The position numbers were made by a program, and so were the translations under genes. The notes beneath the pieces were generated by a model. It made no database searches. It saw nothing but the letters and a program-made list of their open reading frames with translations, and was not told the DNA's origin. A stretch of DNA of 22,748 bases from a virus (taxonomy: Duplodnaviria; Heunggongvirae; Uroviricota; Caudoviricetes): positions 1 to 22,748 of the IMG/VR virus record IMGVR_UViG_2671180674_000012, one strand, 5' to 3'. This document shows, in pieces, positions 1,307 to 22,748 of this stretch (positions are counted from its first letter, which is position 1; every line of letters begins with the position of its first letter).

Positions 1307-3628
1307 TTAAAAATCAACCTGACTCGGGATCAGTTTTTGCCAGATAGCTGAAACTTGTTTTGCCTGGTGGCGGGCATCATCCAGTGCATTATGGCGTACG
1401 CCTTCGAACGGAATAGCTGTTCTGGCATCGAAGTCTATGGCTTTTCCCAGATCAACGATTGTGCGCACATCGCGATCGTTGCAGTAACGCCACGGGCAGG
1501 GGATACCCTGCCGTTCATATGAACGGCGTAAAATCACGTTGTCGAAGCTGGCTCCATTTCCCCAGACCCGAACAAAAAATTCACCGGAGTTTTCGTCGAT
1601 AAATTCCCGCAATTGCAATAGTGCATCATCTAACGGAATTTGATTTACCAATATTGCAGATCTGGCCTCGCTGGACTGCGCCAGCCACCATTCGATTACG
1701 TCACCATCGGGAGTAGCACCTTTGTCCATTGCGTCAACCAGACTGATGACAACATAAAATATCGGTCCGATTTCCCCGGTCTGCGGATCGAAAAACACTG
1801 CAGCAATAACTACGATGGGCGCATTGCTGTTAATTCCCATCGTTTCAAGGTCGATCATCAGATGGTGCCATACCCTGCTGGTGGATGTGATAATGTGATG
1901 ACTGTTCACCGTAATTAAGGGATCTGCCGCCTCGCCCATCACCGCGCCACAATCAGGGCAGTTGCCGCCACCGCTCTGACCGCAGGCGGTGCAGACTTTT
2001 TCCGGTTCTTGTTGCTCTTCTGGTTCAGGCTGTTTCGTTTCTGGCTCGTTTTGTAACGTATTTGGGCTGTTCTGTTCCGCTTTCTGGTCGTTTTGTTCCG
2101 ATTCGGGCAGGTTCTGGTTCACAGAATCGCGGGTTTCAATCCCCTTAACCCATTTCGGATCATTCGGGTCGCTAATTCCGTCAACGAACTCACCGCGATG
2201 GACTGCCAGTATTTTGTCGGCATCAGGCTGGTTGATATTGGTTGCCTGCATAATTTTGTTTACTTCGTCAGCGGTAACTTTTACCTGTTTAACTGGATCT
2301 ACCTGTTCCTGAGTATCCAGCGATTGCGTGTCCTGGTGATGTTCAGTTGTATCCGGCTCCATTGCTTCGGCCGTTGCCTGTTCATCTGCCATTGCGTCAG
2401 ACGGTTGTGATTTTTCCTCATTATTTTTTTCTTCTTCTGTTTCGCGTTCAGCAGCCAGTTCGCGGTTAACTTCTTCCAGGATATCTTTTTCCGGTGTATG
2501 TCGTGCAGCAGCGAGAGTTTCCTCGGTAGGGTTCTCGTGATCAGTCTCCGTTAAATAGGCGTTGATATACCCCTGAAGGCGTCCCGGGTAATGATAAAAC
2601 TCAGGGTGTGCGCTCCGGATAAGTGCAAAAATAGCGGCGCGGGAATAATCCAGGATACCCGGGATTGCGCGAAGTGCTGCGGACCATTCTTTGAACGGAC
2701 TTTCTTTCTTCTGGACGACTTCTTTTGCGCGACGATAAACGCTGCCCGGAATTTCATAAATATTAAAATCCATCGGAAGTGTGGCCGCTGCAATCTCCAC
2801 ATCCAGCGTATCGAAGGTGTGTACTAAATTCGGATTGCGATCGGTTTTGTTCCCGCCACCGGCATTTGCACCGGAAGCCGTACGGGTGATACGCGAAACA
2901 CGATTTCCTTTCATCCACTCTTTTGTCAGCAGACCGCGATCGGTGTAGTCGGCGTCCAGGTATGCTTCGATAAAAGAAGTTATCAGTCCCAGGTCCGAAT
3001 TTACGGGGGCGGGGAAAACTTTGTCAGTGTCTCGCACCAGTTTGTGGAGATCGCGAATCTCCAGCGGTTCGAGTTGCGCTGCTTTATTTGAGATAGCCAG
3101 CGCGGTAACGGCGGGAAGTTTTTCATCCTGTGCGTTATGTAATGCGCGCAGTTCGTCCCGCGAAACGTGTGTGATCGGTTTTTCGCTGCCGTGCTGTGCC
3201 AGCCATCGAACAGGCAGAATCTGACCTGAAACCGGCAGGAGCATGTTCTCCTCAATCTCAGTCATGTCTTCGCTGTTGACGTTGGTATTGTCAGTGTTGG
3301 CTGGTTTGTCCTGCGCAGAGGGTGAGGGCGCGATAAATACCATTGTGATGCCATCTTCCCCGCCTTTTTCGTAACGGTTACAGAATTCAGTATCAAACAC
3401 GCCTTCAGGTGGAAGGTCATTCACAACGGGTAAATGGACGCGGACGGGTTTTTTAAAGTCGTCTTCATCATAATCGTTGTCATCCATTGCGGTAATGCAG
3501 CGGGAGATGGCAACAGATAATTTTTTTGCTGTAGTCCAGTAAAAACCACCTTTAATTCCAAGGCGTTTTCTGACTTTGTCATTTTTTGCTTCACAATATA
3601 ATGCAAATTCTTCTTTATCAGTGCTCAT
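1307..3628 (-). CDS. Large multi-domain exonuclease: acidic low-complexity linker, CxxC...CxxC zinc ribbon, C-terminal DEDDh-type 3'-5' exonuclease domain
   Basis: 773-aa ORF with GAGGT RBS. C-terminus carries DEDDh motifs (MIDLET, WGNGASFD, HNALDDARH). Middle region has CTACGQSGGGNCPDCG and a long E/Q/P/D-rich segment. Confidence 0.7.
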   Translation of the reverse strand: MSTDKEEFALYCEAKNDKVRKRLGIKGGFYWTTAKKLSVAISRCITAMDDNDYDEDDFKKPVRVHLPVVNDLPPEGVFDTEFCNRYEKGGEDGITMVFIAPSPSAQDKPANTDNTNVNSEDMTEIEENMLLPVSGQILPVRWLAQHGSEKPITHVSRDELRALHNAQDEKLPAVTALAISNKAAQLEPLEIRDLHKLVRDTDKVFPAPVNSDLGLITSFIEAYLDADYTDRGLLTKEWMKGNRVSRITRTASGANAGGGNKTDRNPNLVHTFDTLDVEIAAATLPMDFNIYEIPGSVYRRAKEVVQKKESPFKEWSAALRAIPGILDYSRAAIFALIRSAHPEFYHYPGRLQGYINAYLTETDHENPTEETLAAARHTPEKDILEEVNRELAAERETEEEKNNEEKSQPSDAMADEQATAEAMEPDTTEHHQDTQSLDTQEQVDPVKQVKVTADEVNKIMQATNINQPDADKILAVHRGEFVDGISDPNDPKWVKGIETRDSVNQNLPESEQNDQKAEQNSPNTLQNEPETKQPEPEEQQEPEKVCTACGQSGGGNCPDCGAVMGEAADPLITVNSHHIITSTSRVWHHLMIDLETMGINSNAPIVVIAAVFFDPQTGEIGPIFYVVISLVDAMDKGATPDGDVIEWWLAQSSEARSAILVNQIPLDDALLQLREFIDENSGEFFVRVWGNGASFDNVILRRSYERQGIPCPWRYCNDRDVRTIVDLGKAIDFDARTAIPFEGVRHNALDDARHQAKQVSAIWQKLIPSQVDF

Positions 3629-13868: not shown

Positions 13869-14206
13869 GAAGGAAACAAACAGAAACAACAATTGCCGTT
13901 ATCTGTTGCCACCAATGACAAGTAAACGTATCTCAGGCGAGCGCATTGCGCCGTTCTGACGCGGATACATTAGCCTGGGCAGAAGGTTCTGGCAATAAAA
14001 AATAGCGTTTTCTTATCGGTGTCGGTAAGATTGTTGCGGGTGCTTGAGGCTGTCTGCCTCGGGCATGCCACTGTAAGGCAGACAGAGAAAAGCCCCAGTT
14101 AACATCACGCGTCCTGCAAGACGCTTAACATTAATCTGAGGCTCAATCCATGCTGAACACATGTAGGTTAGCCTCTTACGTGCCGAAAGGCAAGGAGAAG
14201 CAGGCT

Positions 14207-14362
14207 ATGAAGCAGCAAAAGGCGATGTTAATCGCCCTGATCGTCATCTGTTTAACCGTCATAGTGACGGCACTGGTAACGAGGAAAGACCTCTGCGAGG
14301 TACGAATCCGAACCGGCCAGACGGAGGTCGCTGTCTTCACAGCTTACGAATCTGAGGAGTAA
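14207..14362 (+). CDS. hok: Hok/Gef-family type I toxin (HokD/RelF-like membrane peptide)
   Basis: Product MKQQKAMLIALIVICLTVIVTALVTRKDLCEVRIRTGQTEVAVFTAYESEE is near-identical to Hok/Gef peptides as I recall them; AAGGAG RBS; structured leader and own terminator. Confidence 0.8.
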   Translation: MKQQKAMLIALIVICLTVIVTALVTRKDLCEVRIRTGQTEVAVFTAYESEE

Positions 14363-16184: not shown

Positions 16185-16559
16185 ATGGGGATAGAATTTG
16201 TTTTGCCTTACCCGCCGACGGTAAACACCTACTGGCGACGCCGTGGCAGCACATATTTTATATCGGAAGCCGGTAAGCGTTATCGCCGTGATGTGGCACT
16301 TATAGTTCGCCAGCAGAGGCTGAAATTAAACCTGTCCGGAAGGCTGGCGATAACGGTTATTGCCGAGCCTCCGGATAAGCGCCGTCGTGATCTGGACAAT
16401 ATCCTGAAAGCGCCACTGGATGCACTGACACATGCGGGGTTGCTCATAGACGATGAGCAGTTTGATGAAATCAATATTGTGCGCGGTCAGCTCGTTCCTG
16501 GTGGGCGGCTGGGCGTGAAGATTTACGAAATAATGCATGACGGGCAGGTCCAAAAATGA
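16185..16559 (+). CDS. rusA: RusA-family Holliday junction resolvase
   Basis: LPYPPTVNTYWRRRG...PPDKRRRDLDNILKAPLDALTHAGLLIDDEQ matches the RusA signature; AGAGG RBS. Confidence 0.85.
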   Translation: MGIEFVLPYPPTVNTYWRRRGSTYFISEAGKRYRRDVALIVRQQRLKLNLSGRLAITVIAEPPDKRRRDLDNILKAPLDALTHAGLLIDDEQFDEINIVRGQLVPGGRLGVKIYEIMHDGQVQK

Positions 16560-17377
16560 AACTGGAAGATTTACCGAAATACTATTCCCCAAAATCGCCA
16601 GGCCTGACTGATGTATCCGCCTCGACGTCAAAAGATGCACTGAGTATCACTGATGTGATGGCTGCGCAGGGGATGACACAGAACCGGGCTGAGATGGGAT
16701 TTTCTGCGTTCCTGGGGAAAATGGGTATTAGTATGAATGACAGGGTGCGGGCAACAGAATTACTGACAGATTATGCATTAAGTCAGTGCGATCGTGTGGC
16801 GGCGTTAAGGAAACTTCCGGCAGAAATAAAACCGGCAGTGATGCGTATTATGGCTTCGTATGCTTTTGAGGATTATGCCCGCAGCGCAGCGAGTAAAAAG
16901 CAGTGCCCTTGTTGCCATGGGGAAAAATTTATTGAAAGCGAAGTTTTTACAAACAAGGTTCAGTATCCGGATGGTAAGCCGCCAGTATGGGCAAAGTGTA
17001 CAAAAGGCGTGTATCCGTCTTACTGGGAAGAATGGAAAAAAATCCGGGAGGTGGTGAAAGTTTCCTGTCCTGAATGTAAAGGGAAGGGGGAGATCTCCAC
17101 TGCCTGTAAAGACTGCCGTGGGCGTGGTGTTGCCATTCATCGTGAAGAGTCAGAAAAACGGGGTATGCCTGTTATCAGGGGCTGCCGGCGTTGTGGCGGT
17201 CGTGGCTATGAAAGACTGCCATCAACGGAGGCATTTAATGCCATATGCAAAGTGACGAGTGCTATCACGCTTGATACATGGAAAAAATCAGTGAAACGCT
17301 TTTACGATACGTTGGTGGTTCGGTTTGACATTGAAGAGGCATGGGCGGAGCGGCAGTTAAAGATGGTAACGCGATAG
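16556..17377 (+). CDS. Putative late antiterminator (Q-like) with four CxxCxGxG zinc-finger repeats
   Basis: ATGA overlap with rusA; CPCCHGEKF, CPECKGKG, CKDCRGRG, CRRCGGRG; positioned directly upstream of a promoter/terminator pair. Identity as Q is inferred from position. Confidence 0.55.
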   Translation: MKLEDLPKYYSPKSPGLTDVSASTSKDALSITDVMAAQGMTQNRAEMGFSAFLGKMGISMNDRVRATELLTDYALSQCDRVAALRKLPAEIKPAVMRIMASYAFEDYARSAASKKQCPCCHGEKFIESEVFTNKVQYPDGKPPVWAKCTKGVYPSYWEEWKKIREVVKVSCPECKGKGEISTACKDCRGRGVAIHREESEKRGMPVIRGCRRCGGRGYERLPSTEAFNAICKVTSAITLDTWKKSVKRFYDTLVVRFDIEEAWAERQLKMVTR

Positions 17378-17410: not shown

Positions 17411-17458
17411 CGCCCTAACGATGGGCGTTTTGTGCCTGACGTTAGCGTGATTTCTACA

Positions 17459-17481
17459 ACCCGCCAGCGAGCGGGTTTTTT
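17459..17481 (+). terminator. tR'-like terminator downstream of the late promoter
   Basis: Short GC stem (CCGC/GCGG, loop CAGCGA) followed by TTTTTT; an earlier hairpin CGCCC/GGGCG with TTTT lies at 17411-17431. Confidence 0.5.
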
Positions 17482-17642
17482 GTTGTGATAGATAACAACT
17501 CCAGGTGGCATTCATTAGTGAATATTAGTTAATGTGTGCTGCCATGCGTTAAAAGATGTCAATTCGTTATTGACCGATATCAAATTATGGAAAGATGAAT
17601 TTCATTACTATTGAAAATCCGTTGTTTCAATAGGTGATATTT

Positions 17643-18359
17643 ATGCATAAACTAATTAAGCTGTTTTCATTTTTTATTGCACTATCGATATCTCAGTGTT
17701 ATGCCACTAGTAATGAATTCATAAGCGCCAGTAACAGTAGGGCATTTTCATTTTTTTTGCCTACAGGGCAAGCAATGGCTATCCAGTATCTTGATGGACT
17801 TAAAAGATATTCAGCGAGTGAGATTATAGACGATTTCAATAATAATGAATTGAGAGCAAAGAAAAAGTATAAAGATATATTCATCATAAACTCAACAGCG
17901 CGGGCGATTAAGCAAGACCTTGATGATAGGTTTTTTGTTCTGCTAAGGGATGGTAATAGTGGATTTGAATCGTTTTATGCTTACTATGATAAGAAATCAG
18001 AAGGTGACTTAGAGTTTCTTAACGAAGGTGATAATGTGGAGTTTATTTGCTCCAATGTTAAAAACATCATTATGCCAAGAGCGGAATGTTTTTCTATCGC
18101 TTTAAATCTTGAATCTAAAAATATTCAGGGAAACCCTATAAGATTTTTTGATAATGCTTATAAGTTGCAAAACACTTATAAGGCTACAAAAATAACATTT
18201 ATACTTTATTCTCTTCTGAAGGATAAAATTGAAAAGGACTGCGAAGAATCTATTGAAGCATGCAACCTGGCTGCCAGGAGGTTTACGGATAATGGCGCAT
18301 TACTTGACTCCATGCTTGAACCTTATGCGGATATGTTAAGTAAAATCGGTAACAATTAA
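17643..18359 (+). CDS. Secreted protein with Sec-type signal peptide and OB-fold (tRNA_anti-like) domain; AT-rich cargo
   Basis: AGGTGA RBS 5 nt before ATG; N-terminus MHKLIKLFSFFIALSISQCYA; central region resembles the tRNA_anti-like OB-fold pattern from memory; markedly AT-rich. Confidence 0.55.
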   Translation: MHKLIKLFSFFIALSISQCYATSNEFISASNSRAFSFFLPTGQAMAIQYLDGLKRYSASEIIDDFNNNELRAKKKYKDIFIINSTARAIKQDLDDRFFVLLRDGNSGFESFYAYYDKKSEGDLEFLNEGDNVEFICSNVKNIIMPRAECFSIALNLESKNIQGNPIRFFDNAYKLQNTYKATKITFILYSLLKDKIEKDCEESIEACNLAARRFTDNGALLDSMLEPYADMLSKIGNN

Positions 18360-20008: not shown

Positions 20009-20433
20009 GTTCACAGGGTGTTAATACCACCGGAAAGGTCAGTGCTGACTTCCTGGTGATCAGTTTGTTGATTCAGTAATAACCGGTCAGCAGTGTGATT
20101 CCGGAAGTCAGCATTTTATGTGTGAGGGTAATTTCTGCTACCCGCACTGGTAAACAAATGAGGCATATCGTTTCAGCACTGGCGAGTTTCGCGGAGAACA
20201 GGTTTTGCAAGCGCCTTTGTCGTTCTTCATTCTGTAATATCTGACTGATTACAGTTTCGGTGCTGTTTTTTACATTGTTAACGTTGTGTATCATCGGATG
20301 GTTTTTATCAGAATGAGTCGCTGCCTGTTTCGGGGTCTGTGATTCGTCAGAATTACGTTGCAGGCTGACGAATCATTCTGGTAGTAACCATACAATTAAA
20401 CGCTGTCTAATTCTTATACGATGAATGCTTTGG

Positions 20434-20459
20434 GCCCGTCTCATGACGGGCATTTTTTT
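20434..20459 (+). terminator. Rho-independent terminator closing the repeat-rich noncoding segment
   Basis: GCCCGTC-TCAT-GACGGGC followed by ATTTTTTT. Confidence 0.5.
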
Positions 20460-20556
20460 ATCCGTGCGCAATGCCTGTTCTGTTATGGCATTTTTCATCT
20501 TTTCCCGGTTGGCTATTATTATGTTTTATTTTTCTGTATACAGGAGAATTGAGACT

Positions 20557-21048
20557 GTGATCACATATGCAGACATTCGGGCAAAGCAGGCTGAAATTCA
20601 GGAGGCCAGACAGGAGTACATCCAGCGACTGCGGGATATGGCAAAAAGGCTGGTCAAGACCTATGAAGACTCACTGGCATTGCCGAAACCACGATGGCTG
20701 GATATTGAGGGTAACTCCCATCCCTATGTTTATCTTTCTCATGATAGTTGTTGTGAGAAACCGGAGGATTTGCAGGTAGATTTTCAGGATGGGGTTACTT
20801 TTAATTTATATACGGTTGTTGATGATGATCCCCGCCAGTCTGTAAGTGTGAATATTACAGTGAGTATTCTGTTACTTGATGGCGACAACATGACGATTTC
20901 GGTTGATGGTTATCAGGCCAGGACATTTTCGCATGTGGATACCAACGCAAAAATTAATGAAGTGTGCGAATACATTAAAGACAGCATACTTATGTCAATG
21001 AATGAAGTGACGTTTGGCAAAAAATCCCTTTCAGAAGTGAAAGGGTAA
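20557..21048 (+). CDS. Hypothetical protein (163 aa)
   Basis: GTG start with AGGAG 10 nt upstream (the ORF-track start at 20425 lies inside the terminator and has a hydrophobic junk-like N-terminus); followed by its own terminator. Confidence 0.5.
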   Translation: MITYADIRAKQAEIQEARQEYIQRLRDMAKRLVKTYEDSLALPKPRWLDIEGNSHPYVYLSHDSCCEKPEDLQVDFQDGVTFNLYTVVDDDPRQSVSVNITVSILLLDGDNMTISVDGYQARTFSHVDTNAKINEVCEYIKDSILMSMNEVTFGKKSLSEVKG

Positions 21049-21108: not shown

Positions 21109-21245
21109 CATATCTGCGCCACGCCCGGCGCACATCAAAAAACCACAGAGCCTTTCAGGGGGGAGCTTACGGGATGGTCAGTGTGACTTTCTCTGTGGGC
21201 TGCTCATCCCGGGGCGAGGCTCACCCACTAAAAGGAAAAGTCACG

Positions 21246-21671
21246 ATGTTTGGTATTTTCAAAAAGAAAACCCGTAAGGCTATTACTGAAGTGAAGAAAA
21301 TGGAGAACCGCGACGCGGTGGAGGCGACCGTCTGGGGCGCGTATTCCATTGCATACGCTGACGACACCTGTGACGCGAAAGAAATTGCGGTACTGGAGAA
21401 AACCATTGCAGCACTTCCTGCCTTTGCGCCGTTCTCCGGTGAGATTGCCCAGATGAGCGCGAATATCCGCGCCCGTTATGAAGCATCGCCGCGTTCTGCC
21501 AATGCTGAAGCCCTCCGTCAACTGGCTGATGTCGCCGGTACTGATGATGCCGTTAATGTGCTGTGCCTGTGTCTGGATATCGCAGACCAGGATGGCATTG
21601 GTCCGGATGAAGAAGCACAGCTCAAGAAAATTGCTCAGGCGCTGCAGTTACCGCTGGAGCAGTACCTGTGA
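21246..21671 (+). CDS. TerB-like (tellurite-resistance TerB family) protein
   Basis: 141-aa product with AAGGA RBS; helical, acidic composition and motifs (EIAVLEKTIAALP, VNVLCLCLDIADQDGIGPDEEAQLKKIAQAL) resemble the TerB fold from memory. Confidence 0.6.
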   Translation: MFGIFKKKTRKAITEVKKMENRDAVEATVWGAYSIAYADDTCDAKEIAVLEKTIAALPAFAPFSGEIAQMSANIRARYEASPRSANAEALRQLADVAGTDDAVNVLCLCLDIADQDGIGPDEEAQLKKIAQALQLPLEQYL

Positions 21672-21826
21672 AAAGCGCACGCCTTGCGCTGGCTGCCGTC
21701 CTGCTGTTTCTGGTAGTGGCGGTGGATTTCACCGGACGGCTGATGTCGGTACTGGCTGATGGTGTACTGGTGGCGATGGCGCTGGTCGTGCTCCGGCCTT
21801 TATTCCGGAACAAAAACAACAGCTGA
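21668..21826 (+). CDS. 52-aa hydrophobic peptide, start overlapping the TerB-like stop
   Basis: GTG at 21668 overlaps TGA at 21669-21671; product VKSARLALAAVLLFLVVAVDFTGRLMSVLADGVLVAMALVVLRPLFRNKNNS has two hydrophobic segments. Absent from the ORF track because it is under 60 aa. Confidence 0.35.
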   Translation: MKSARLALAAVLLFLVVAVDFTGRLMSVLADGVLVAMALVVLRPLFRNKNNS

Positions 21827-21834
21827 TTATTTGA

Positions 21835-21862
21835 GCGGGCATTGAAAGCCCGCTGCATTTTT
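21835..21862 (+). terminator. Terminator between convergent genes
   Basis: GCGGGC-ATTGAAA-GCCCGC followed by TGCATTTTTA; overlaps the stop codon of the minus-strand DUF4145 gene. Confidence 0.45.
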
Positions 21863-22541
21863 ATTGCTGCTGTTCCTTAATGCGTTCCGGTAGCACAAAT
21901 GCCACTTCAAGGAACAGGCGGAGAAACGCCACAAACTCTTTTGCCTGTTCACCACTGGCCTCGAGCTCGTGCACAGCCTCATTGCCTTCCATACGGATTC
22001 GGTGAGCCCAGTTTCTCATTGATTCCGTCAGTATGCCGTCCTGCCGTGCCAGTTCAATGCGTGACAGCAGATTGCCTTTTTCGTACCCCAGGGCACGGAG
22101 GGCAACCTCGAGGACGCTACGGCAGCCAACAATGATACGCGGGGCGGTTCTGCCGGACCGAACATCCTCCTGCAACTCGGTGAAGACTGCGCGAATTTTT
22201 TCGGGATAGTGGGGGGAGTCATCGGGCAGCCTGAGTTCAGGATAGATTTTGATGCTTCCCTCAAGTGGAGCATTCAGCACCCAGGCTTTGTTGTTGATGG
22301 CTTTTTTCATGTCCACCAGTTCACTGACTGAACATTCGAATGCGATCATTAATGGGTTGTTACATTCTGTGCAAAAGTCTGTTGAGTATGCTTTTGCTGA
22401 TGTTATTTCAGAGGTGCGCGGCTGTTGCACGTAAAGCTTGTTTTCTGTAGCCGGGCGCCTGCTGTGGTACTGGGTGACCTCATTCAGAGAAATATGAACC
22501 TGATGAAGGCAGTACGGGCATCTAATTTTCAGGGAGTACAT
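21861..22541 (-). CDS. Zinc-ribbon plus DUF4145-domain protein
   Basis: ATG at 22541 with AAGAGG upstream; N-terminus MYSLKIRCPYC...CTECNNP; C-terminus matches my recollection of DUF4145 (RSVLEVALRALG...NWAHRIRMEGNEAVHE...FVLPERI). The ORF-track extension to 22730 lacks an RBS. Confidence 0.6.
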   Translation of the reverse strand: MYSLKIRCPYCLHQVHISLNEVTQYHSRRPATENKLYVQQPRTSEITSAKAYSTDFCTECNNPLMIAFECSVSELVDMKKAINNKAWVLNAPLEGSIKIYPELRLPDDSPHYPEKIRAVFTELQEDVRSGRTAPRIIVGCRSVLEVALRALGYEKGNLLSRIELARQDGILTESMRNWAHRIRMEGNEAVHELEASGEQAKEFVAFLRLFLEVAFVLPERIKEQQQ

Positions 22542-22748
22542 ATGACCTCTTCGACAGAAGTGATAACTGAATTTGAAAATTGCATAGCAGATTCTGCCAT
22601 TGATTCTGTAGCAGCGATAGAACGAAGGTTTGCTGCTGCTCAGACCCGGTATGGTCATGATGCAGCCGTCAAAGGGCTGGCAATGGCGTTTGTTATTGCG
22701 GAGAACCGCCGTCGCTTTATTGAAGCGCAAATGACACTAAAGCAATAA
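22542..22748 (+). CDS. Small hypothetical protein (68 aa), divergent from the DUF4145 gene
   Basis: ATG 22542 with AGGGAG SD at 5-nt spacing; product MTSSTEVITEFENCIADSAIDSVAAIERRF... ; the window ends at its stop codon. Confidence 0.5.
   Translation: MTSSTEVITEFENCIADSAIDSVAAIERRFAAAQTRYGHDAAVKGLAMAFVIAENRRRFIEAQMTLKQ

Follow-up and report, generated by a model that had tools for sequence, protein, structure and literature searches.

The DNA analysed here (the window; 22,748 nucleotides (nt), IMG/VR virus record IMGVR_UViG_2671180674_000012, positions 1 to 22,748) is a lambdoid prophage whose right end carries two divergent genes that touch start codon to start codon. The minus-strand gene encodes a predicted ribonuclease (RNase) of 226 amino acids (aa) resembling the defence protein RAZR, and the plus-strand gene encodes a protein of 68 aa. 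Open reading frames (ORFs) and features of the pair are:

21861..22541, minus strand: RAZR-like gene, 226 aa, N-terminal Cys4 zinc ribbon and C-terminal DUF4145/HEPN domain; stop codon at 21861-21863 (from ORF, Pfam, PHROG and PADLOC)
22329..22541, minus strand: zinc-ribbon domain, residues 1-71; CPxC...CxxC with a variable insert between the Cys pairs
22518-22520, 22509-22511, 22371-22373 and 22362-22364, minus strand: codons of C8, C11, C57 and C60, respectively
21864..22202, minus strand: HEPN (DUF4145) domain, residues 114-226; putative catalytic R183 (21993-21995) and H191 (21969-21971), Rx7H
22542..22748, plus strand: small partner gene, 68 aa, predicted two-helix hairpin (from ORF; homologues adjoin RAZR-like genes)
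22539..22544, both strands: CATATG junction, where the two divergent starts touch with zero spacer (direct reading)
22532..22536, plus strand: Shine-Dalgarno sequence GGGAG of the small gene, 5 nt before the plus-strand ATG, within codons 2-4 (Y-S-L) of the RAZR-like gene
22546..22551, minus strand (read from 22551 to 22546): Shine-Dalgarno sequence AAGAGG of the RAZR-like gene, 4 nt before the minus-strand ATG, within codons 2-4 (T-S-S) of the small gene
22452..22601, both strands: zone of raised synonymous-codon conservation, covering the first ~30 codons of the RAZR-like gene and the first ~20 of the small gene

The start region near 22540 reads ...cagGGGAGtaCATATGacCTCTTcg... and, in a wider reading, ...GGGAGTACATATGACCTCTTCG.... 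The reverse complement of CAT at 22539-22541 opens the minus-strand ORF (21861-22541; 226 aa and a stop codon), and ATG at 22542-22544 opens the plus-strand ORF (22542-22748; 68 aa and a stop codon), the stop codon of which forms the last bases of the window. The first-pass annotation of this DNA had described CATATG as two abutting start codons, each preceded by a good Shine-Dalgarno sequence; direct reading of the sequence bears this out, coordinates and spacings (5 nt and 4 nt) included. A search of the junction against Rfam matched no known RNA. As explanations, either an extremely compact divergent control region or one misassigned start had been offered, and the former is favoured because both start codons are conserved in the relatives. 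In 18 full-length homologues of the large protein (43-80% identity), M1, C8, P9, C11, C57, C60 and many C-terminal residues are invariant, and residues 2-3 are Y/F-S/T in most of them; the corresponding TAC TCC codons of the window gene read GGAGTA on the opposite strand. The alignment to phrog_1305 covers residues 2-225. In the small protein, M1-T-S-S is invariant among close homologues. Judged from this conservation, neither start is misassigned. RefSeq/PGAP calls a protein of 162 aa or 149 aa from internal ATGs (NZ_CP010122.1, NZ_CP098183.1), whereby the Cys4 ribbon is lost and stays hidden in the annotated genomes examined; the 226-aa form is the true conserved protein and the shorter call an error. 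The 888-bp pair was present in 6 of 5426 complete E. coli genomes with 94.7-99.9% identity, and CATATG was also found at loci L018 and L019.

The domain search agreed with the earlier assignment of the large protein to DUF4145 (PF13643, HEPN clan CL0291), which matched residues 137-202 with an E value of 2.3e-11 and 44.1 bits, above the gathering cut-off of 23.1. Among 101 homologues at 22-45% identity, the four ribbon cysteines and H191 are each at least 90% conserved, and R183 and H191 are both invariant in the 18 closer homologues. The spacing between Arg and His is x7, as in RAZR, versus x4-6 in canonical HEPN proteins. An AlphaFold2 model had a mean predicted local distance difference test score (pLDDT) of 79 overall and of about 90 in the C-terminal half, with a β-rich N-terminal ribbon (strands 2-7, 14-19, 22-24, 48-56 and 63-71) and a helical C-terminal domain, i.e. 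the α-helical fold of HEPN proteins; HepT-MntA structures were among its top fold-search matches. In a collection of 5.8 billion proteins, 29 homologues were found, full length down to about 42% identity. Counted as representatives of 50%-identity clusters, 2360 proteins were found at E ≤ 1e-3 in an exhaustive HMMER search with the family profile, and 102 of them reached E ≤ 1e-30; most of these relatives are full length (220-250 aa). The PADLOC model for PD-T7-4, which is RAZR, weakly matches 59 of the 101 relatives (best E value 1.1e-10), and a few of them align to model positions 13-186, the zinc-finger part included, with E values of about 1e-7. A PDB sequence search with the family profile gave no relevant match and did not return RAZR.

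RAZR, the ring-activated zinc-finger RNase of E. coli (Zhang et al., Nature 2026, PMC13017515; Vassallo et al. 2022, PMC9519451), combines an N-terminal Cys4 zinc finger with a DUF4145/HEPN domain carrying the catalytic residues R146/H154 (x7), and acts as an abortive-infection RNase (PMC13017515). It becomes active on assembly around phage portal or Gp77 rings, whereby the zinc-finger domain sets the trigger specificity, and is not toxic alone (PMC13017515). HEPN RNases typically have Rx4-6H (PMC13017515), and DUF4145 is known as a HEPN domain which can be fused to zinc ribbons (PMC3710099). A connection of DUF4145 with defence had been put forward in the first-pass annotation; RAZR, with the same architecture and the same Rx7H spacing, backs it (PMC13017515). 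By analogy, the large protein would be an abortive-infection RNase that guards the lysogen. DS-38 of DefensePredictor (HEPN plus zinc-finger; WP_001313577) was considered as its identity and rejected, since the DS-38 gene has 1,101 nt (~366 aa) and hence encodes a different protein.

The small protein had no match in Pfam, PHROGs, PADLOC or NCBIfam. Its AlphaFold2 model had a mean pLDDT of 93.9 with helices at residues 4-37 and 39-67; neither the model nor a fold search with it (E ≥ 6, no meaningful match) showed a helix-turn-helix or a known fold. The motif ..DS..IER.FA.AQ..G.D.A..GLAMAF.IAENRRR is conserved and fades with distance across the aligned small proteins, and the ratio of non-synonymous to synonymous substitutions (dN/dS) is 0.08-0.16 against diverged copies, where dS is computable. 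A profile search with the small family found 16 clusters only, all unannotated. For at least 5 of these 16, the longest contig is equal in size to that of a RAZR-like cluster, and several more consist of small proteins from the loci studied because of their putative RNase. On these grounds the 68-aa ORF is a real gene and a conserved partner rather than an accident. Mean pairwise identity is 0.27 for the small protein, 0.25 for residues 1-100 of the large protein (its N-terminal part, i.e. the zinc ribbon and the linker after it) and 0.46 for the HEPN part; the small protein thus diverges at the rate of the N-terminal part of its neighbour.

Beside relatives of the large gene, 17 distinct pairs with a divergent gene for 62-84 aa were found, the two start codons being separated by -2 to +32 nt (11 pairs at -2 to +2 nt, 6 pairs at 10-32 nt). 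These pairs come from a sample of the 2360 profile relatives, not from a census, and the scan of genome contigs yielded 3 loci. The large proteins of the 17 pairs have about 26-100% identity to the window protein, and the small proteins are homologous to one another. The junctions in the relatives take the forms CATG, CATNATG and CATATATG, distributed as follows:

Salmonella (L003): junction CATTATG
Metagenomic enterobacterial prophage (L009): junction CATATATG
Pantoea-like (L011, L017): junction CATG, 2-nt overlap
Paraburkholderia Mu-like prophage (L013): junction CATCATG
Trabulsiella, Budvicia and three other IMG/VR loci: the same pattern
Five representatives with 26-34% identity: spacing of 10, 13, 22, 27 and 28 nt
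A 211-aa relative: spacing of 32 nt
Shigella phage 75/02 Stx, gp19/gp20: junction CATG

Seen again in 17 independent pairs, the tight spacing of the starts exceeds chance. The pair of Shigella phage 75/02 Stx (gp20/gp19, L038 2008-2926) is a 32%-identical version with overlapping CATG starts adjoining the ren/DnaC region; pairs of this type also occur in POCJ13, PhiR5_2 and PhiR12_3, and gp19 of 75/02 Stx bears the label 'DNA binding protein'. This version from Shiga-toxin (Stx) phages was present in 48 of the 5426 complete E. coli genomes. In the literature searched, neither a partner gene for RAZR-type proteins nor the family of the 68-aa protein nor the start-to-start architecture was found. 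The domain logic and prophage antisense inhibitors of HEPN proteins are already known.

Genome compaction could also have pressed together two functionally unrelated neighbours, the small ORF being a phage gene with a function of its own. Compactness is usual in phage genomes, and a terminator of its own follows the small gene, but the same head-to-head geometry recurs at no fewer than five unrelated genomic positions in distant bacterial groups, and the small family is essentially confined to sites beside the putative RNase family. Mere neighbourhood is therefore considered very improbable.

Loci at which only one of the two genes is intact were also found. In a clade with 62% identity (L006-L008, L020), the RAZR-like gene is intact and the small gene has decayed, its start being lost and an in-frame stop codon present. 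The decayed copies were located at L006 5700-6000 and L020 3700-4000, with an NMT1_3 periplasmic-binding-like gene just beyond. Conversely, phage phiSTEC1589-Stx1c (L040 2501-2758) has the small gene without the RAZR-like gene. Here, the nucleotide homology to the Stx-phage cassette ends 3 nt before the ATG of the small gene, and the ORF now opens at an upstream GTG. A chromosomal, non-prophage relative of the large protein (P0179) has no partner gene.

A precedent for such a relationship is Tha of Staphylococcus aureus prophages, a HEPN RNase for which tail proteins are the trigger (Rostol et al., Nat Microbiol 2024, PMC11087260). On induction, the small protein Ith, encoded antisense (ith-1, 201 nt), inhibits Tha and so averts autoimmunity; transcription of the two genes is mutually exclusive (PMC11087260). 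The single-gene states fit an Ith-like inhibitor and not an essential antitoxin, and they give indirect support to an inhibitor role. In a classical toxin-antitoxin system, the HEPN protein would be intrinsically toxic and held in check by a labile, constitutively made small antitoxin, so that infection or loss of the element frees the toxin. Many HEPN RNases are indeed toxins with cognate antitoxins (HepT-MntA is among the top fold matches), the small protein is antitoxin-like in size and helical nature, and the pairing is tight. However, the genes are divergent and not co-transcribed, one clade keeps the putative RNase gene intact beside a dead partner, the chromosomal relative is partnerless, RAZR is not toxic without a trigger (PMC13017515), and no nucleotidyltransferase of the MNT type was found with Pfam or PADLOC. 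We regard a toxin-antitoxin pair as unlikely. The inhibitor model is favoured over it because of the single-gene states, the partnerless non-prophage relative, the harmlessness of untriggered RAZR and the matched divergence of the two proteins. When the first-pass annotation suggested a regulator or antitoxin-like component, the partnership itself was seen rightly, as the small gene travels with the putative RNase gene across very different prophages; a classical antitoxin is disfavoured by the clade with the pseudogenised partner and by the lack of toxicity of RAZR alone.

The geometry of the junction bears on how the two genes could be expressed. The start codons are 0 nt apart in the window and never more than 32 nt apart in the relatives, so that two promoters do not fit between them. 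Each ribosome-binding site (RBS) lies within the other ORF, and any messenger RNA (mRNA) that includes one of these sites therefore has to originate within the opposite gene or extend across it. Thus, the two mRNAs are complementary across both RBSs and both start codons, each running antisense to the 5' end of its neighbour. Among amino-acid-identical pairs, the fraction of identical codons in the RAZR-like gene was 0.48 near the junction and 0.39 elsewhere (p = 0.02), and in the small gene 0.53 and 0.36 (p = 0.03), a modest effect among sequences that are phylogenetically related. The raised codon constraint is consistent with signals of a 5' untranslated region or a promoter embedded in the coding sequence.

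This arrangement also bears on the proposal that the small protein acts positively, as a sensor, an adaptor or an activator of transcription without which the RNase would not defend, which would make the pair a two-component system. Strict co-occurrence and the co-divergence with residues 1-100 of the large protein would be expected of such a partner, and the arginine-rich C-terminal ENRRR could bind nucleic acid. Yet mRNAs that are antisense at their 5' ends are a poor design for co-expression, and the small gene is always co-oriented with the lytic genes, which are silent in lysogens. The clade with only the RAZR-like gene and the orphan small gene are hard to explain on this basis, and the small protein has no helix-turn-helix and no known fold. 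A positive partner is consequently given a low probability.

In the window, the plus strand carries, in this order, hok/sok, DUF968, RusA, the Q antiterminator, a tR'-like terminator pair, an OB-fold protein, an N6/N4 DNA methylase, a 207-aa protein, TerB (tciA-like) and DUF3927, after which come the RAZR-like gene (minus strand) and the small gene (plus strand). The transcription elements relevant to the pair are:

16556-17377, plus strand: Q antiterminator
17411-17477, plus strand: tR'-like terminator pair, just after Q
21834..21864, plus strand: intrinsic terminator after the DUF3927 gene, stem AGCGGGC...GCCCGCT and T run, adjoining the RAZR-like gene at its 3' end and bounding the cassette on the left

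Several plus-strand terminators lie between Q and the cassette. In E. coli C5, where the pair is 99.9% identical, a strong terminator comes directly after the small gene, and beyond it lie two holins and an M15 endolysin. The suggestion that further partners may lie beyond the window was thus not borne out, since to the right in this strain there is only the terminator and then the holin/endolysin cassette.

All members examined but one are within prophages, and the pair was found in lambdoid, Mu-like, P2-like and Stx prophages. At L003 and L009, it is placed between the lysis genes and the terminase, and at L011 directly between the holin and a tR'-like terminator that follows Q. In Mu-like prophages, it is flanked by DUF3164 and GemA; some representatives have it within baseplate clusters, and Stx phages in the replication region, adjoining ren/DnaC. 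Because they occur in such different genomic slots, the two genes move together as one unit. Their orientation was the same in 11 of 11 gene-called prophage contexts: the small gene is co-oriented with the flanking lytic genes of the phage and the RAZR-like gene is opposed to them.

Residence in prophages would likewise be expected if the large protein was a phage regulatory factor, either as a nucleic-acid-binding zinc ribbon or as an RNase that takes part in the lysis-lysogeny decision through its action on transcripts of the phage, with the small gene as its antagonist. The label of phrog_1305, 'DNA binding protein', the low PADLOC score and the finding that all but one of the examined members are inside prophages agree with such a role. 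Against it, the pair occupies accessory (moron) slots which vary by phage type and holds no fixed regulatory position, both variants are rare (6 and 48 of the 5426 E. coli genomes), the catalytic Rx7H is conserved, and the nearest characterised architecture is a defence RNase. A regulatory factor is therefore judged improbable.

Taken by analogy with Tha and Ith, the pair would be a prophage-borne two-gene defence cassette consisting of an RNase and its cognate off-switch, a reading to which we give an even chance of being correct. In the lysogen, the RAZR-like RNase would be made from a promoter inside or beyond the small gene and guard against superinfecting phages, with the zinc ribbon as sensor and the HEPN domain as nuclease. 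As the small gene is co-oriented with the lytic genes, lytic transcription would do two things: it would run antisense through the RNase gene, over its RBS and promoter, and it would yield the small protein. In the window, this would be late transcription that, antiterminated by Q, passes the many terminators of the plus strand. The 68-aa hairpin would then bind and block the RNase as a self-immunity factor, as Ith does for Tha, and so keep the structural proteins of the prophage itself from triggering the RNase, whereby autoimmunity would be avoided. Both the inhibition by the small protein and the mutually exclusive expression are thus extrapolated from the arrangement of the genes and from the staphylococcal precedent.

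More tentatively, and with somewhat less than an even chance, the pair may represent a self-contained life-cycle toggle of a previously undescribed type. The two genes have no intergenic DNA, and each carries the RBS and probably the promoter of the other within its first 20-30 codons; expression of a ring- or structure-sensing RNase in lysogeny and of its dedicated inhibitor in the lytic phase would then be mutually exclusive by construction. No protein that inhibits RAZR-type RNases is known so far, so the small protein would be the first, and its gene could serve phages against defence.

Several results weigh against the cassette with an off-switch. The clade with the pseudogenised partner sits in a seemingly ordinary prophage late region; therefore, the partner is not always needed. 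On neither strand did scans for consensus σ70 promoters near the junction (window, L001, L003, L011, L038) give more than was expected from shuffled sequences. A strong terminator of its own lies downstream of the small gene, which could therefore be autonomous and expressed in the lysogen, too. The PADLOC PD-T7-4 model (PDLC04109) matches the window protein weakly (E value 5.9e-4, 17.4 bits) and in the HEPN part only; because of this weak match, the large-protein family appears, by sequence, to be a sister family that shares the domain logic of RAZR, and not a canonical member. Finally, the RAZR structures 9Y9C and 9Y6U were not among the PDB sequence or fold matches, and RAZR was compared via the profile and the published description.

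Further genes of the window were inspected. Between 17300 and 22748, 17 terminator-like hairpins were counted versus 6.1 ± 2.4 expected; 10 are on the plus strand. The hairpins include the tR'-like pair after Q and one after each accessory gene block, and this region looks like a chain of terminator-bounded morons in a Q-dependent late leader. Directly after Q, a 241-aa protein (17634-18359, plus strand) has a weak tRNA_anti-like OB-fold match, and a similar OB-fold-type gene lies beside the methylase in the Salmonella prophage (L003). The 207-aa ORF between methylase and TerB (20425-21048, plus strand) belongs to phrog_5091, has no Pfam match above threshold and has a hydrophobic N-terminus. 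The TerB-family (tciA-like) gene and the 52-aa DUF3927 gene span 21174-21826 (plus strand), and this DNA is 82% identical to tciA of phage P1. A survey of HEPN proteins described links between DUF4145 and TerD (PMC3710099). A coupling of the pair to TerB/DUF3927 was considered and rejected, since the window segment with TerB/DUF3927 is matched in 367 E. coli genomes and the pair in 6. Upstream, a sok antitoxin RNA (14038-14212, plus strand; Rfam RF01794, 114 bits) is part of a hok/sok (hokD-like) type I toxin-antitoxin locus, and a 773-aa protein of the early region (1307-3628, minus strand) combines an exonuclease VIII domain with an Rv2179c-like 3'-5' exoribonuclease domain. In strain C5 (L001 21558-22994), the gene after the large terminase, at the expected portal position, has the RefSeq name 'anti-CBASS protein Acb1 family protein', perhaps through an artefact of naming.

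As published in 2026, RAZR is an immune sensor made of one protein. Here, a large prophage-borne sister clade (102 cluster representatives) is added, which comes with a conserved small partner, so far undescribed, in an unusual head-to-head arrangement. If this partner is an inhibitor, it would be a ready-made protein against RAZR-type RNases. It would also provide a second, independent case of the principle of Tha and Ith, namely that prophages must disarm their own abortive-infection systems, in unrelated phages of Gram-negative bacteria and with a different HEPN family. The orphan copy in the Stx1c phage hints at an anti-defence use of the small gene. Since a 32%-identical pair is found in Shiga-toxin phages (48 of 5426 E. 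coli genomes), the pair may affect induction of Stx phages and superinfection.

Compared with known systems, RAZR is closest in architecture: both proteins have a Cys4 ribbon, a linker and a DUF4145/HEPN domain, the catalytic R and H are eight residues apart (R146/H154 and R183/H191), the size is ~200-230 aa, both reside on mobile elements and in both the zinc-finger region is the most variable part. The window protein differs in being ~37 residues longer N-terminal to the catalytic motif and in having a longer insert between its Cys pairs, the zinc-finger domain of RAZR comprising ~65 residues. Moreover, RAZR is a single-gene system, whereas the window clade has a conserved divergent partner (17 pairs) and lies inside prophage lytic operons. 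With Tha/Ith, the pair shares a prophage HEPN gene and a small gene on the opposite strand. In contrast, Tha has 301 aa, Rx4H and no zinc ribbon, and ith is antisense inside the cI operon, whereas here the genes are head-to-head and the putative RNase gene, not the gene of the candidate inhibitor, opposes the operon. No sequence relation to Tha or Ith was detectable: in a tblastn search of 50,697 phage records, the 226-aa protein matched no Staphylococcus phage at E ≤ 1e-5, and the small protein had no match at all. BstA/aba, a prophage abortive-infection protein with a linked self-immunity element (Owen et al. 2021, PMC8585504), resembles the proposed cassette in combining prophage-encoded abortive infection with cognate, physically linked self-immunity; however, aba is a DNA element inside bstA and not a protein, and BstA is not a HEPN RNase. 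Compared with HepT-MntA (HEPN-MNT), the pair has no MNT nucleotidyltransferase, its genes are divergent and not in an operon, and the motif is Rx7H and not Rx4-6H. HepS of the Gifsy-1 prophage (PDB 9oik, named as in the PDB title) is related at the level of the fold only; it has no zinc ribbon and no known head-to-head partner. In excludons and noncontiguous operons, divergent or antisense units with overlapping transcripts make opposing functions mutually exclusive. The pair described here differs from these in that the overlap is forced by the zero intergenic DNA, the RBSs and presumably also the promoters being contained in the first codons of the partner gene.

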